A stretch of DNA of 64,000 nucleotides from an uncultured Bacillota bacterium (lineage in GTDB: Bacteria > Bacillota > Dehalobacteriia > UBA7702): contig CAKUYE010000001.1 of the NCBI GenBank assembly GCA_934702375.1, positions 11,275-75,274 of the forward strand, written 5' to 3'. Positions 10,616 to 58,691 of this stretch are shown here, piece after piece. The notes below the pieces were generated by a model, which saw nothing but the letters and a program-made list of their open reading frames with translations, searched no databases and was not told the origin of the DNA. Numbering within the stretch: position 1 is the stretch's first letter; every line of letters starts with the position of its first letter. The translations under genes were made by a program, and so were the position numbers.

Positions 10616-10691
10616 GGCGGTGTAGCTCAGTGGTTAGAGCACTCGGTTCATACCCGGGGTGTCAAGGGTTCAAATCCATTCACCGCTACCA
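10616..10691 (+). tRNA. tRNA-Met (anticodon CAT), CCA encoded
   Basis: Cloverleaf by eye: acceptor GGCGGTG/CACCGCT, D-arm GCTC-AGTGGTTA-GAGC, anticodon loop TTCATAC, T-loop TTCAAAT, 3' ACCA; one G-A mismatch in T-stem; Met versus initiator versus lysidine-Ile not resolved. Confidence 0.8.
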
Positions 10692-10694
10692 CAT

Positions 10695-10771
10695 GGCGCG
10701 TTGGAGAAGCGGCTGAACTCACCAGCCTTTCACGCTGGCATTCATGGGTTCGAATCCCATACGCGTCACCA
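10695..10771 (+). tRNA. tRNA-Glu (anticodon TTC), CCA encoded
   Basis: Acceptor GGCGCGT/ACGCGTC, anticodon stem CCAGC/GCTGG with loop CTTTCAC, T-loop GGTTCGAATCC, 3' ACCA. Confidence 0.85.
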
Positions 10772-46577: not shown

Positions 46578-46863
46578 TAAATAAAAGAGCCCTGCTTCTA
46601 GAAAGCAGGGCATTTTCACAACGTAATTACCATGCTTCTTGCGCGGAAGCTAAGACAATAAAAGCACAAAACTCGAAATATCCTGACTTCACATCAACGC
46701 ACAGCTTCGTCTTCCCACCAATGGCAGTGACTGACAACGTCTGAAGCATGCTCCGTTTCACAGTGGCGCGACCGTTCGGGATTCTAACCCGATTTCTTCG
46801 CAGTTCCGTGATTCATTATTTATTTACTATATTATTTATACCACAATTCCAACAAAATTTCAA
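46578..46863 (-). ncRNA. candidate unclassified small RNA of about 250 nt bounded by an extended -10 promoter and an intrinsic terminator; contains a tRNA 3'-half-like segment
   Basis: Minus strand: -35 TTGAAA (46858-46863), 17-nt spacer, TGgTATAAA -10 (46835-46840); terminator GCCCTGCTTTCTAGAAGCAGGGC then TCTTTTATTT (46578-46611); no ORF; internal GGGTTAGAATCCCGAACGGTCGCGCCA resembles a T-arm plus acceptor plus CCA. Confidence 0.4.
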
Positions 46864-54473: not shown

Positions 54474-55772
54474 CTAAAACTTATATATTGCCGAAAATCC
54501 ATTATATACCCTATCATTCATTATATTTAGAGGCGTAATTATCGTCGGGTTTATATATCTAACAACACCTGTATTAGGATCTTTATAATATATTTTATAA
54601 TAAAATCCAGCTCCGTCGCGATAGCATTTGTATGCGAGTCCAGAACAATTTATTTTTTGCGTATTTGATAAGGGAGCCGTTGCACTCCAAGAATAGTTTC
54701 TACCTGCACCATTTACAAAATAAGTTTGACCATACCAAGCTGCGCTAACAGATACCTGACGGCAATTTGTATCGCCGTTGCAATATTCAGGAATTCTTCT
54801 TAAAACATACGTGTATCGATCACTATATCGATTAGCCCATGTTTGATATGAAACCTTTTGAACTCCCGAATCAACAATCTCAAGAATTCGGTCACCACAT
54901 GCCATCCCGATATGACCAAAATAGAATGTTCCATTAGTATACAGAATATCTCCATCAAGAAATTGGAATCCACCTCCAACAAAACCACTAGGAGAAATAA
55001 TGTTATTGAAAATTGGAGCATTCTTAAAATAATTGACAGAACTGGGATCATTTGCCAAATGCTCCATTTCATCCTGAGCAGCTTTAATTTCTGCATCTAA
55101 TTCTTCCTGATGTATTTCTATATATTGCTGCATTTCAAATCCTGATAAATAGAGGTAATAAATTGCGATCATTTTACATGCTTCGCTACGTTTTATGTTA
55201 CTTTTAGGATTGTAGTTTTGATTTTTGTCTCCACAAAGTATATCTGCAAGTTGTAGTTTTTCTATATCAATCTTCGCCCATTCCGAAATATTTGATTCAT
55301 CTTTAAAATGCATTTTTTCTTTAGGGTTGGGAAGTTGAAATTCATCAATCGTATTAACATGGCGTCCTAAAATAACCGCGGCTTCTTCGCGGGTTATTTT
55401 TTTGTTTGGCGCAAAAAAATTATTTCCCATACCTTGTACGATTTGACTATCATATGCCCATTGAACCGGTTTTGCATACCAGCTTTCATAGTTTACATCG
55501 TAAAAATCCGTTATGCCTGTGTACTGCGAGAAATCTATTTGCGAAACATTTGCCAAAATTTTTACAAATTCTGCCCGAGTAATATCATCATTAGGCATAA
55601 ATTCATTATTATTTACCCCAGATACAAAAAACCTTTCGGATAAAAGCGTAACATAATCGTAGAACCAATCTTGTTCTGTTACATCTTGAAAGGACGTAGT
55701 TTGAGCGAAAGTTGCAGATGAAAAGAAAGCGCAAAAGATAATTGCTAAAATAGAAATTGAAACTTTTTTCAT
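54474..55772 (-). CDS. secreted SLH-domain protein with C-terminal circularly permuted papain-fold (NlpC/P60-superfamily, YiiX/DUF830-like) peptidase domain
   Basis: Signal peptide; two SLH repeats (FQDV...W..YV and FPNDDITRAEFVKIL type); C-terminal region with His before Cys (GHIGMA ... NCSGLAYKCY), the order seen in permuted NlpC/P60 enzymes. Confidence 0.6.
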   Translation of the reverse strand: MKKVSISILAIIFCAFFSSATFAQTTSFQDVTEQDWFYDYVTLLSERFFVSGVNNNEFMPNDDITRAEFVKILANVSQIDFSQYTGITDFYDVNYESWYAKPVQWAYDSQIVQGMGNNFFAPNKKITREEAAVILGRHVNTIDEFQLPNPKEKMHFKDESNISEWAKIDIEKLQLADILCGDKNQNYNPKSNIKRSEACKMIAIYYLYLSGFEMQQYIEIHQEELDAEIKAAQDEMEHLANDPSSVNYFKNAPIFNNIISPSGFVGGGFQFLDGDILYTNGTFYFGHIGMACGDRILEIVDSGVQKVSYQTWANRYSDRYTYVLRRIPEYCNGDTNCRQVSVSAAWYGQTYFVNGAGRNYSWSATAPLSNTQKINCSGLAYKCYRDGAGFYYKIYYKDPNTGVVRYINPTIITPLNIMNDRVYNGFSAIYKF

Positions 55773-55822: not shown

Positions 55823-56395
55823 TTACCAATATTTATTTTTGATATATCCCAAAATCAGCATTAAAACCATTGTAATAAACGCTGCAAAGATACATGTGCT
55901 GAGCGTGGTATAATTTATAAAGCATGCTATTATAAAAATGAATGTTTCGATGAATAAAAGATAACGTATTTGTTTTTTGAAAAAAAATTGTTCTTTTGTC
56001 GTAAAAGGTTTGTTTTTATCTTCCATTGGTGCTATGATAAAGATAACAGCAAAAGCAAGTATCATTCCGATACAGCAGACCACATCGCTTATCGCGAAAA
56101 AACGGATCGCCAACAGTATTGCTGTGATCAGAATTACAGAAAAAATGTAACATCTCCCGGGTGTTTCAGCATGGTATCCCCCTGCGTATATCCGAAGAGG
56201 AATATATGCCGCCAGATACAGTATCACCTCCATAACGGAATCAAGGAACAACCCGATCAACAGGGCGGTCAACAAATTGAAAAAAAGCACGACTCCCTGA
56301 TACATCCCATAACAATACAGATCCTTCATTTCCGATGTAATAATGCCGGTATCTATGAAACAATCACATAACTTAAGACACACTCTTTGAATCAT
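55823..56395 (-). CDS. agrB: accessory gene regulator protein B (AgrD-processing membrane peptidase)
   Basis: About 190 aa polytopic membrane protein; conserved PLRIYAGGYHAETPGRCYIFS block with the catalytic His and Cys of AgrB; ATGA start/stop overlap with agrD. Confidence 0.8.
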   Translation of the reverse strand: MIQRVCLKLCDCFIDTGIITSEMKDLYCYGMYQGVVLFFNLLTALLIGLFLDSVMEVILYLAAYIPLRIYAGGYHAETPGRCYIFSVILITAILLAIRFFAISDVVCCIGMILAFAVIFIIAPMEDKNKPFTTKEQFFFKKQIRYLLFIETFIFIIACFINYTTLSTCIFAAFITMVLMLILGYIKNKYW

Positions 56396-56544
56396 TTGCA
56401 ATTAATTTTGCTTAGCTTTTCTGCACCGGCAGGCAATTTGGGCTGATGCATAACAAATAAACATGCCGTGCTTGCATTAACGGCGGTTACAAAAAGTGCC
56501 AGACTTGCCATGATGCTACCGATTCGGTACATAAATTTTTTCAT
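56392..56544 (-). CDS. agrD: AgrD-like autoinducing peptide precursor (50 aa: MKKFMYRIGSIMASLALFVTAVNASTACLFVMHQPKLPAGAEKLSKINCK)
   Basis: Amphipathic N-terminal leader; central STACLFVM with Cys 5 residues before the HQP processing motif, the Clostridium perfringens-type AgrD pattern (SACLWFTHQPEEP); AGGAGG RBS upstream. Confidence 0.7.
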   Translation of the reverse strand: MKKFMYRIGSIMASLALFVTAVNASTACLFVMHQPKLPAGAEKLSKINCK

Positions 56545-56587
56545 TGTACAAATGCCTCCTGAACTTAGTTTTTCTGTTGGCATGTTC

Positions 56588-56654
56588 ATTATAAAGCATT
56601 TCTTTTCAGAAATGTCGGGAAATGTTGTGAATTGCAAATTTTTTGTTGAAATTT
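56588..56654 (-). promoter_or_regulatory. candidate autoregulated agr promoter: two LytTR-type direct repeats (TGTTGTGAATT / TGTTGAAATTT, 10-nt gap) upstream of a -10 TATAAT on the minus strand
   Basis: Imperfect 11-bp direct repeats at 56624-56634 and 56644-56654; -10 at 56588-56593 on the minus strand; geometry resembles the AgrA boxes of the staphylococcal P2/P3 promoters. Confidence 0.45.
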
Positions 56655-56675
56655 GTATGTTAGGAGGTAAAGCCT

Positions 56676-57380
56676 TTGTTTCATATTGCAGTTTGTGATG
56701 ACGAAAAAAATATTTGCGAGGAAATTCGCACTTTTGCTCAACGCTATGCTGAAGAAAAAACCTGTTCTGTAGATTGCAGCATATTCCTTTCCGGGGAGGC
56801 TCTTTATGAATCTCTGGCTAGAGGAAATTATTATGACGTAATCTTTCTGGACATTGAACTTTTTCACATCAGCGGTATTGAAATCGGGGAATATATCCGC
56901 CGGCAATTGAAGGATATGCTTTCCCAGATCGTATACATTTCCTCCCGTCCGGAATATGCCATGGAGCTTTTTGCAACGCATCCCTTGGATTTTTTAACAA
57001 AGCCGATTTCCTTTGAGAAATTTTCAGTCTGTTTAAATCAAACCGCAGAGCTAAAAAGTAAAAGAGGCGCATTTTTTTCTTATAACTGCCGGGGAGAATA
57101 TCGAAGAATCCCGTTATCCAATATCCTCTATTTTGAAAGCCAAAACCGCAAAATCTATGTAACAAGAATCAACGGAAAAGAAGAATATTACGGCAAACTC
57201 AACGATGTGGAAATGCAGGTAGATGATTATGGTTTTTTACGAATCCATAAATCTTTTATTGTAAACCCACAGTATGTAGATATTTACGGGAAAACAACCG
57301 TTACGATGAACAACGGAGATATCCTGCCTGTCAGCCGAGATAAACAAAAAGAAATTGCAGCTAAAATAATAGAAGTATAA
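56676..57380 (+). CDS. agrA: LytTR-family response regulator (AgrA-like)
   Basis: TTG start after AGGAGGT RBS; N-terminal receiver (CDDE, D at about 59) and C-terminal LytTR DNA-binding domain. Confidence 0.8.
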   Translation: MFHIAVCDDEKNICEEIRTFAQRYAEEKTCSVDCSIFLSGEALYESLARGNYYDVIFLDIELFHISGIEIGEYIRRQLKDMLSQIVYISSRPEYAMELFATHPLDFLTKPISFEKFSVCLNQTAELKSKRGAFFSYNCRGEYRRIPLSNILYFESQNRKIYVTRINGKEEYYGKLNDVEMQVDDYGFLRIHKSFIVNPQYVDIYGKTTVTMNNGDILPVSRDKQKEIAAKIIEV

Positions 57381-57395
57381 GTTTGGTGGTTTACG

Positions 57396-58691
57396 ATGGA
57401 CATCCTTTATTCTTGCTCTCTTACGGTGTATTCTTTTTTTAATGTGTATATTCTGCATCGATTTAATCGCTCTTTTTTTGGAACATGCATCACACCACGG
57501 TATATCGAATTAGGGTCTTATTTTTTCATATTCCTTTCAAATACAATCATTTCTTTATGGATCAATATACCGATAGTGATATTGCTATGCAATGTAATAG
57601 GGTATTATTTACTAACCTATAACTATCAATGCGATCAAAAGCATCGAGTTTTCTTACCTTTAATCTACATATGCATTACCACCTTGGCAGAATTGATTAT
57701 ATTCTTCTTGTCTACCTATACCCCAATTCAAATTTCGGAAATAAACTCGTACAATTTCGCTTTTGGACCGGTCTTTTCAGCAATTTTGTCTTATGCAATC
57801 GTAAAAATTCTTATTGCATTAAAATCATCAAGCGCCCAAATCAAGCTGCCGCTTACCCATTGGCTTCTTCTTTTAGTGATTCCTCTGGTTTCGTTTTACC
57901 TCATTCTGCTCATCATGAGCTTTGAAGATGCAGATCCGAAAACAGTGGCACTCTGCTGCATATTGGCATTGATAATCAATTTTGTGGCCTTCTATTTTTA
58001 CGAAGTGGTTACAGCTTATGCCATAAGCAAAATGGAAAAGCAGCGGGAGGAAGAAAAAAACCGTTACTATCTGCGCCAGCTGGAAACGATGGAGGCATTT
58101 TCCGAATCTATGCGCAGCTTCCGGCACGACTTAAAAAACCACACCATTGCCATGCAGGCATATCTAAAAAACAAACAGTACGACGCCCTGGAAACCTATC
58201 TGTCCGATACCTTTATTGAAAAGGCCTTGTCCGAAGAAAGCATCCATTGCGGCAACACCGTGATTGACAGTATTTTAAATTTCAAAATACACGAAGCGGG
58301 AAATAAGGGGATTACCCTTGAAGCAAAGGTTTCCATCCCGCCCCAACTGCACATTTCCGATTCTGATCTGACGGTGATTTTGGGAAATCTCCTCGACAAT
58401 GCCATAGAAGCAGTGGAACCTTTAACCGAAGAACGTGTAATCCAACTGACGATTTCCTATCAAAAAGGAAACTTGATTCTTTCGGTGAAAAATCCCTATA
58501 AAGGAGAATTGCTGAAAAAAGGAGACCGATGGATTACCTCCAAAAAAGATAAGGATTTACACGGCTACGGCTTGGGCAATGTGAAACATATTGTCGATAA
58601 AAACGGCGGCACCATGCGGATTCAAACGGAACAGCAAATCTTCTCCGTGACGATGATGCTATACGACACGAATACAGACGAAAGCCACTAA
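57396..58691 (+). CDS. agrC: AgrC-like sensor histidine kinase (HPK10 family)
   Basis: Six N-terminal TM helices; H-box FRHDLKNH; N-box LGNLLDNAIEA; G-box GYGLGNV. Confidence 0.8.
   Translation: MDILYSCSLTVYSFFNVYILHRFNRSFFGTCITPRYIELGSYFFIFLSNTIISLWINIPIVILLCNVIGYYLLTYNYQCDQKHRVFLPLIYICITTLAELIIFFLSTYTPIQISEINSYNFAFGPVFSAILSYAIVKILIALKSSSAQIKLPLTHWLLLLVIPLVSFYLILLIMSFEDADPKTVALCCILALIINFVAFYFYEVVTAYAISKMEKQREEEKNRYYLRQLETMEAFSESMRSFRHDLKNHTIAMQAYLKNKQYDALETYLSDTFIEKALSEESIHCGNTVIDSILNFKIHEAGNKGITLEAKVSIPPQLHISDSDLTVILGNLLDNAIEAVEPLTEERVIQLTISYQKGNLILSVKNPYKGELLKKGDRWITSKKDKDLHGYGLGNVKHIVDKNGGTMRIQTEQQIFSVTMMLYDTNTDESH

Follow-up and report, generated by a model that had tools for sequence, protein, structure and literature searches.

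Quorum sensing by agr-type cyclic peptides has been described in Staphylococcus aureus and in several clostridia, and the described systems differ from one another in gene order and in the components that accompany the peptide precursor AgrD and its processing enzyme AgrB. In S. aureus, agrB, agrD, agrC and agrA form one operon with a divergent RNAIII effector, the part of AgrD behind the ring (the follower) is acidic, and the autoinducing peptides (AIPs) have exocyclic tails; alleles differ mainly in the peptide core and in the AgrC sensor (PMC12312760). Clostridium perfringens has agrB and then agrD, downstream of two other genes (PMC2706048), and lacks agrCA, its receptor being VirS (VirS/VirR signalling); C. 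acetobutylicum has agrBD and agrCA in separate operons (PMC12312760). For C. autoethanogenum the published order is agrD1-agrC1-agrB1 (PMC8748961). In C. difficile, agr1 has no adjacent agrCA and its order is written both ways, and agr2 of strain R20291 has all four components, with agrD reported directly before agrB (PMC3754575; by report, not by sequence). Here we analyse an agr locus in a 64-kb stretch of DNA (64,000 nt of contig CAKUYE010000001.1, assembly GCA_934702375.1, from an uncultured Bacillota bacterium of the GTDB lineage Dehalobacteriia, UBA7702), which as a whole is called the window below. We conclude that the locus is very probably a complete, intact and ordinary agr-type peptide quorum-sensing module of a clostridial clade. 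Its four genes form two divergent units, agrD-agrB on the minus strand and agrA-agrC on the plus strand:

56392..56544, minus strand: agrD, 50-amino acid (aa) autoinducing-peptide precursor (TIGR04223, 43.6 bits), with a Shine-Dalgarno (SD) sequence 10 nt upstream.
56560-56555, minus strand: SD sequence AGGAGG of agrD, 10 nt before the ATG; its GGAGG core is unchanged in six aligned relatives.
55823..56395, minus strand: agrB, predicted 190-aa membrane cysteine peptidase/cyclase that would process AgrD (PF04647).
56676..57380, plus strand: agrA, 234-aa response regulator with a TTG start and AGGAGG upstream (PF00072 and PF04397).
57396..58691, plus strand: agrC, 431-aa sensor histidine kinase (PF14501, HATPase_c_5, 89.7 bits).

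The agrD product is MKKFMYRIGSIMASLALFVTAVNASTACLFVMHQPKLPAGAEKLSKINCK, 50 codons running on the minus strand from an ATG at 56544 to a TGA stop at 56394-56392. It matches the NCBIfam model TIGR04223 ("AgrD family cyclic lactone autoinducer peptide") over residues 8-40 with E=2e-11, its score comparing with a cut-off of 19, and as a small open reading frame (ORF) adjoining agrB with a 4-nt overlap it has the neighbour and the size (about 40-60 aa) typical of the family. A Pfam scan of the 50-aa peptide gave no match, the staphylococcal-type Pfam AgrD model also being silent. Since the peptide passes TIGR04223 and has an AgrB (PF04647) as its neighbour, the agrD ORF stands far above chance. A 50-aa precursor in which a Cys is followed by four residues and HQP had been proposed in a first-pass annotation of this DNA, and both the ORF and its SD sequence were found. 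An 81-aa version offered by the ORF finder was rejected, as its TTG start lacks a comparable SD sequence and the extension is unneeded; in related contigs, gene callers sometimes picked a 63-aa extended AgrD.

AgrB matches PF04647, the family that also holds AgrB of C. difficile agr1, with 120.1 bits (cut-off 23, E=9e-35) over profile positions 3-182 of 185. Its H75 and C82 (GGYHAETPGRC) align by BLASTP with the catalytic H77/C84 of S. aureus AgrB, and the same His/Cys motif, seven residues apart, is present in two of the related loci examined (L028 and L031; related loci carry L numbers, homologous proteins P numbers). Several Kyte-Doolittle hydrophobic spans fit a polytopic membrane protein, and a PDB sequence search with AgrB returned no match at E<=1. 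A TTG at 56401 was dropped as the agrB start in favour of the ATG at 56395, where homologue alignments start and where relatives keep the overlap. AgrA consists of a receiver and a LytTR DNA-binding domain, with a weak match to the AgrA model NF046049; it lies beside agrC, so the LytTR regulator anticipated in the first-pass annotation is present. AgrC has a polytopic N-terminal sensor (~residues 1-210, about six hydrophobic spans), an H-box FRHDLKNH and a GHKL ATPase domain. Its match to NF046015 is partial, and the equivalog matches of both AgrC and AgrA fall far below the staphylococcal cut-offs of those models.

Each of the four ORFs is intact and matches its profile over the full length, with catalytic and phospho-transfer motifs in place, and from the four family matches and the catalytic motif it follows that the agrD-agrB/agrA-agrC module is complete. 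The four protein families, the catalytic His/Cys pair of AgrB and the LytTR activator are those of S. aureus. The staphylococcal organisation (a single agrB-D-C-A operon with divergent RNAIII) is not matched at the locus. That layout is a staphylococcal trait and no defining feature of the family at large; no RNAIII effector is evident in the agrD-agrA spacer, whose 131 nt are too short for such a gene, and there is no Rfam match near the locus. No second agr locus was found in the window. Genome-mining studies use PF04647 and TIGR04223, and one took 29,921 AgrD from RefSeq genomes, with 4,704 precursors from Clostridia (PMC12180512). The locus is already recognised by both of these standard models, and routine annotation pipelines would name it.

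The agrD TGA (56394-56392) overlaps the agrB ATG (56395-56393) in an ATGA at 56392..56395 on the minus strand, just as the first-pass annotation had read it, and the roughly 25 nt before agrB contain no SD-like motif. In that annotation the locus was further described as C. perfringens-type, with an unusual agrD-before-agrB order and an atypical basic tail. Taken together these features would make it an unusual variant of the C. perfringens system, with reversed order and a basic follower, autoactivated through LytTR sites 10 nt apart, a reading that we consider improbable. It draws on a Cys-x4-HQP junction resembling that of C. perfringens [CLWFT] and on an order unlike both staphylococcal agrBDCA and C. 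perfringens agrBD. The order is indeed as described; among relatives, however, all three of order, tight junction and basic tail are usual, as the following comparison reveals.

An AgrB protein scan of one genome per species returned 17 loci with 24-37% identity, and at each of them gene order was determined by listing the small ORFs beside agrB and by tblastn with the four window proteins. In 12 of the 17 (L002-L006, L009-L013, L015 and L017; L015 has a second agrD-agrB pair) agrB is immediately preceded by an AgrD-like ORF of the same strand; in one (L016) such an ORF lies downstream of agrB, and in four (L001, L007, L008 and L014) none adjoins it. Most of the 12 read agrA-agrC-agrD-agrB, all co-directional, and this is the layout reported for R20291 agr2 (found, for example, in L002, L003, L005, L013 and L017). 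Outside the genome set, agrD also comes first in six closer metagenomic relatives (L018-L021, L033 and L031), in L029 and in L028, the one new locus among the matches listed in a metagenome scan with an AgrD alignment, whose leader pattern was unspecific. AgrD of L018-L021 is 84-98% identical to that of the window and AgrD of L033 is identical to it, while L031 is a more distant relative (AgrA 72% identical). Where upstream sequence exists, the divergent agrDB/agrAC layout is common to the window, L018, L020, L029, L031 and L033. It differs from R20291 agr2 in that agrDB is inverted relative to agrAC; a 2025 primer writes the C. difficile locus agrB2D2C2A2 (PMC12312760). Compared with C. autoethanogenum Agr system 1 (PMC8748961), the window shares agrD as the first gene, before agrB; there, however, agrC stands between agrD and agrB, agrA is lacking and the ring is described as a lactone.

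The minority loci (L001, L007, L008 and L014, and also L025) have the arrangement agrB-agrA-agrC with no recognisable agrD beside agrB, their precursor being either elsewhere or of an unrecognised type; in L025 (Lachnospira eligens, NC_012780.1 65207-72653) an ABC transporter precedes agrB.

At the agrD-agrB junction, an overlap or a gap of <=7 nt was found in all 13 independent loci checked:

ATGA, overlap of 4: L002, L010 and the window group (identical junction in L018-L021).
Overlap of 8: L003 and L012.
TAATG or TGATG, overlap of 1: L006, L011, L013 and L028.
Gap of 1-7 nt: L004, L005, L009, L015 and L017.

L031, which is outside this tabulation, keeps the 4-nt overlap. Because 12 of the 17 genome loci and the metagenomic relatives are agrD-first and their junctions are tight in every case checked, the order and the tight junction are clade traits and not a peculiarity of the window.

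The same holds for the tail. The AgrD tail HQPKLPAGAEKLSKINCK has five Lys and one Glu, so it is basic as the first-pass annotation had noted. In most of the 17 clade peptides the follower reads (H/Y)QP(E/K)LP....KLRKF, its Lys/Arg-rich ...KLRKF end being common in the clade, and its net charge, counted from the 17-peptide alignment, runs from about -1 to +4. At +4 the window is among the most basic members of a set that is itself mostly basic, and its tail is therefore not atypical for the clade. The AgrD follower of C. perfringens is acidic. In L004, L005, L017, L028 and L006 the final LRKF is often encoded ...AGG AAG TTY TAR, and these AGG AAG codons put an SD-like AGGAAG a few nt before the agrB ATG; the window is without this and has the ATGA overlap only. 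It is a matter of speculation that the LRKF codons may also serve agrB as a ribosome-binding site, in which case tail conservation would be partly at the nucleotide level.

The C. difficile literature gives agrACDB in one place and agrB2D2C2A2 in another, and agrDB or agrD1B1 as well as agrB1D1 (PMC3754575, PMC12312760, PMC3901668), so gene order cannot be read from names. The annotated C. difficile plasmid locus is A-C-B-D and that of phage phiCDHM1 is C-B-D, with agrB before agrD in both. We therefore do not count agr2 of C. difficile as proof at the sequence level, and the claim that agrD comes first rests on the loci surveyed here.

AgrD can be divided into a leader (residues 1-27), a predicted ring (C28-M32, CLFVM, with codons at 56449-56463) and a follower (H33-K50), and a hydrophobic span covers residues 4-33. 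Cys28 is followed by LFVM and then by HQP (C28-LFVM-HQPKLP). All 17 aligned clade peptides pass TIGR04223; Cys28 and Gln34 are invariant in every one, and the four-residue gap from Cys to (H/Y/F/G)Q is constant across them, while metagenomic AgrD homologues show 52-98% identity. A five-residue, Cys-initiated ring followed by HQP is also the arrangement in C. perfringens (PMC7492741, PMC12312760), and rings to compare with it are known from C. perfringens, [CLWFT], and from C. difficile AgrD1, ANST[CPWII] (PMC12312760). From homology to these two peptides, the signal is predicted to be the cyclic pentapeptide Cys28-Met32, CLFVM, for which a tail-less form would have a calculated [M+H]+ of 594.278 (standard residue masses); as a homology-based prediction, the CLFVM ring of the first-pass annotation thus stands. 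The nearest characterised peptide is C. difficile AgrD1, with C. perfringens less close. The AgrD1 precursor runs ...CPWIIHQPK, ...LSANSTCPWIIHQPK (PMC8534292), so that its junction ...LSANST-CPWII-HQPK faces ...VNASTA-CLFVM-HQPK in the window. Beyond the AgrB family and this junction the two loci diverge, as the window, unlike agr1, has agrD first, overlapping agrB, and a divergent agrAC. Thus, the term C. perfringens-type fits the peptide junction but not the locus. C. perfringens has agrB-agrD and no cognate agrCA (PMC2706048, PMC7492741), whereas the window has agrA and agrC adjacent and an HQPK junction closer to AgrD1, which argues against an unusual C. perfringens-type variant.

Whether the mature signal is this bare ring is a separate matter. 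It could instead be a thiolactone with an exocyclic tail (such as TACLFVM or STACLFVM), as in staphylococci or in the 8-mer tested in C. perfringens, or mainly a rearranged lactam, an outcome that we regard as possible but doubtful. For C. difficile AgrD1 the listed form, ANST[CPWII], has a tail of four residues (PMC12312760), and leader cleavage sites are not readable from sequence. Yet the AIPs from the native producers R. cellulolyticum and C. thermocellum are without tails, and the likely natural signal of C. perfringens is a tail-less 5-mer thiolactone (PMC7492741). In the window, residues S-T-A precede Cys28, with small residues at -1 and -3, and S-T-A|C would fit a signal-peptidase-like cut directly before Cys28. 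Since the C. perfringens, R. cellulolyticum and C. thermocellum products lack tails and S-T-A precedes the Cys, our best guess is that CLFVM matures without an exocyclic tail. As to the lactam, the R. cellulolyticum AIP has no exocyclic tail, and tail-less clostridial thiolactones rearrange spontaneously, by an S-to-N acyl shift, to the lactam (PMC8251862). Rc-AIP1, a clostridial AgrD/AgrB product without an N-terminal tail, could therefore serve as a model for the fate of CLFVM; it differs in sequence, in that the trait it regulates is sporulation, and in that its chemistry was demonstrated.

The spacer upstream of agrD was the basis for the proposed autoactivation. Two LytTR-type repeats 10 nt apart had been noted upstream of a minus-strand -10 in the first-pass annotation, and both elements exist: a minus-strand TATAAT lies at 56593-56588, and the 10-nt-offset direct repeat comprises GAAATGTCGG (56609-56618) and GAAATGTTGT (56619-56628), matching at 8/10 positions (CACAACATTTC and CCCGACATTTC in agrD orientation). 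When the 131-nt spacer is shuffled with its dinucleotides preserved, 33% of the shuffles have an exact direct repeat of 7 nt at a distance of 8-35 nt and 81% have an 8/10 repeat, so the 10-nt repeat alone is not above chance. It is also not the best candidate site. Direct repeats of >=10/11 at a 20-22 nt period lie about 60-105 nt before the agrD start codon in six of the 13 independent relatives, with only 0-3 of 300 shuffles as good at each locus; a period of 9-11 nt occurs at one of the 13 loci, and periods of 14-16 and 26-28 nt at none. A spacer alignment of six related loci including L031 shows the SD sequence and the following elements to be conserved:

56643..56653, minus strand: box 1, AATTTCAACAA, candidate AgrA (LytTR) half-site; AATTTCAACAAAAA is invariant in six sequences.
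56622..56633, minus strand: box 2, AATTCACAACAT, candidate AgrA (LytTR) half-site; ACAACAT is invariant in six sequences.
56609..56618, minus strand: box 3, CCGACATTTC, promoter-proximal copy of the 10-nt repeat, at the -35 position; CC[G/A]ACATTT is kept in six sequences, L031 among them.
56588..56593, minus strand: TATAAT, candidate -10 of the agrDB promoter; TATAAT or TATACT in close relatives, TAAGAT in L031.

The CAACA cores of boxes 1 and 2 are 21 nt apart, and the window pair reads TTTCAACA-N13-TTCACAACA at 56623-56651, sharing one copy with the 10-nt pair; the interval 56620-56660 named in the first-pass annotation covers both boxes. In L002 the box 2 motif GTTTACAACAT is perfectly repeated with a 21-nt period, and in L005 the box 1 motif ACGAATTTCAACATG is perfectly repeated with a 22-nt period, the repeated unit AATTTCAACAT matching the window box. 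The box 1-box 2 pattern occurs once in the 64 kb, where 0.23 matches are expected. The cross-locus comparison thus shows, as the likely operator of the clade, a direct repeat with a 21-22 nt period, and we read boxes 1 and 2 together as the candidate AgrA site and box 3 as the -35 or an auxiliary site. For an unusual variant autoactivated through sites 10 nt apart, it can be said that the 10-nt repeat exists and that its CAACAT/[G/A]ACAT cores are conserved in the six related sequences. However, repeats in related loci are spaced by 21-22 and not 9-11 nt, the distal half of the 10-nt repeat changes in close relatives from ACATTTC to ACATCCTC or ACATCTTC, and the proximal copy sits at the -35 position. 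As a LytTR operator the 10-nt repeat was rejected, and it is kept only as a possible third box or -35 region. Box 3 lies 19 nt before the TATAAT, and an overlong promoter spacer is known from S. aureus as well, a parallel to the agrDB promoter of the window. For agrAC on the plus strand, no convincing -35/-10 pair was seen by eye.

Related contigs reveal that the peptide is polymorphic. Behind an unchanged follower HQPKLPAGAEKLSK the ring is CLFVM (window, L033 and L029), CLFVL (P0001/L018), CEFIL (P0002/L019-L021) or CIGAM (P0003), and a CQFIV allele (L031:630-791) has the follower HQPQLPAGAEKLSK. A signalling peptide would be expected to vary in this way, in the ring and not in the follower. 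In their DNA, the window and L019-L021 differ at many positions in the agrD leader and core and are near-identical from the HQP codons through agrB, with identity of about 84% before the ring/follower boundary and about 100% after it, and AgrB 97-99% identical. Because identity jumps at this boundary, the alignment suggests recombination breakpoints inside agrD. Allele diversity of the sensor was recovered by an AgrC protein search (408 homologues at E <= 1e-30), in which near-identical proteins came from metagenome sources only, and pairs of them show mosaic identity:

AgrC P0015 against the window: 37% over residues 1-150, 98% over 151-215 and 96% over 216-431.
AgrC P0016 against P0018: 40-47% over residues 1-150 and 100% over 151-431.
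AgrC P0020 against P0021: 57% over residues 1-75 and 99-100% over 76-431.

In the window the variable part corresponds to codons 1-150 (57396-57845). The mosaic looks like exchange of sensor cassettes, as in staphylococcal agr groups, and may have arisen in that way. The variable 5' end of agrC is not contiguous with agrD and agrB, as the conserved agrA lies in between. A simple co-variation of AgrC sensor type with the AgrD ring was rejected, since in L029 a CLFVM core occurs together with the divergent sensor P0015.

Several observations weigh against reading the locus as an ordinary, working module. The N-terminal cleavage site of AgrD is a guess. The window box pair is imperfect, matching at 8/11 at a fixed offset, and about half of the shuffles are as good, so the operator call rests on the cross-locus comparison. 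A consensus promoter scan called no agrDB promoter, and the -10 and -35 were assigned manually; box 3 is a poor -35, and at 19 nt before the -10 it is consistent with dependence on an activator, which explains why the scan missed it. L029 combines CLFVM with a very different AgrC sensor, which a strict one-peptide-one-sensor picture does not predict, although the broken agrB of L029 complicates the reading of this pairing. Finally, L018:933-1500 and L029:90-575 carry the same frameshifted or deleted agrB fragments, with agrD, agrA and (in L029) agrC intact. Since the same broken agrB occurs on two contigs, the system would be dispensable in some strains. Because these fragments come from different samples, they probably represent a natural agrB-null lineage and not an assembly error, a view that we hold loosely given the short metagenomic or Logan contigs.

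The shared fragments, together with the frequency of agr-defective variants in staphylococci (PMC12312760), could be taken to mean that the locus is itself a decaying or silent remnant with no working quorum-sensing circuit. We find this very unlikely, as the four ORFs of the window are intact and full length with catalytic and phospho-transfer motifs, and the follower and the promoter boxes are conserved. Moreover, agrB of L019 is intact and 97% identical to that of the window, and agrB of L033, which is partial (the first 117 residues, up to the contig end), is 95% identical and free of stops. Beyond a complete and intact module, we tentatively propose that the window represents one pherotype of a polymorphic agr system, with varying rings, recombining AgrC cassettes and co-occurring agrB-null "signal-silent" strains; the agrB-null strains keep agrD, agrA and, in L029, a different sensor type. 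Two further elements belong to this proposal. The variable pieces lie apart, with the conserved agrA and the common promoter region between them, whereas the hypervariable region of staphylococci is contiguous; and the conserved agrD-first order with its stop/start overlap might be a device fixing the ratio of substrate over enzyme.

The gene identities, the catalytic residues, the overlap, and the conserved order and boxes are observed directly. The peptide chemistry, inferred by homology with S. aureus, C. perfringens and C. difficile, and the DNA binding of AgrA and autoinduction, which we propose in addition, would run as follows. AgrD would enter the membrane via its hydrophobic leader, where AgrB (His75/Cys82) would cut the follower off after Met32 and the Cys28 thiol would close the five-residue thiolactone CLFVM. 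A second protease would strip the leader, probably right before Cys28 (...STA|C), and the tail-less thiolactone could rearrange to a homodetic cyclopeptide, as in Ruminiclostridium cellulolyticum. AgrC would sense the peptide and phosphorylate AgrA, which would bind the 21-nt-spaced CAACA boxes just upstream of the weak -35 and activate agrDB, giving positive feedback. Translation of agrB is probably coupled to that of agrD, by ribosomes ending at the agrD stop, because agrB lacks a separate ribosome-binding site and its start codon overlaps the agrD stop; this would keep the enzyme below its substrate.

Directly downstream of agrB on the same strand lies a gene that could be a read-through or an agr-regulated target (54474-55772, minus strand). 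Its product of 432 aa has three SLH domains and matches NlpC/P60 faintly. The gene has a promoter-like site of its own (TTGATA-17-TATAAT, 55815-55787) and also follows agrB in L018 (L018:1544-1606); no terminator-like site was found between agrB and the SLH gene. Other features of the window and of the searches are the following:

46658-46825, minus strand: cobalamin riboswitch aptamer (RF00174, 59.6 bits).
10616-10771, plus strand: adjacent tRNA-Met(CAT) and tRNA-Glu(TTC) genes.
L026 (Paraclostridium sordellii plasmid ps1, NZ_CP080292.1 24112-24837): 241-aa coding sequence annotated as AgrD family, whose N-terminal part matches AgrB; it is probably a fusion of AgrB with AgrD, or else a call merged in error, and the gene after it encodes a LanM-type lanthipeptide synthetase.

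Since the features that had been flagged as odd are typical of the clade, no new mechanism is called for. The practical value is modest and lies in a concrete peptide candidate, cyclo-CLFVM, for an uncultured clostridial organism, whose related contigs are suggested to come from gut metagenomes by sample names only. For the annotation of clostridial agr loci the comparison provides three rules: agrD immediately upstream of agrB with stop and start overlapping or nearly abutting, followers of the form (H/Y)QP(E/K)LP...KLRKF, and direct repeats with a period of 21-22 nt that lie 60-105 nt upstream of agrD. The mosaic sensors and the agrB pseudogene found on two contigs hint that commensal Clostridia, like staphylococci, in which both are well known, have polymorphic agr groups and lose agr.

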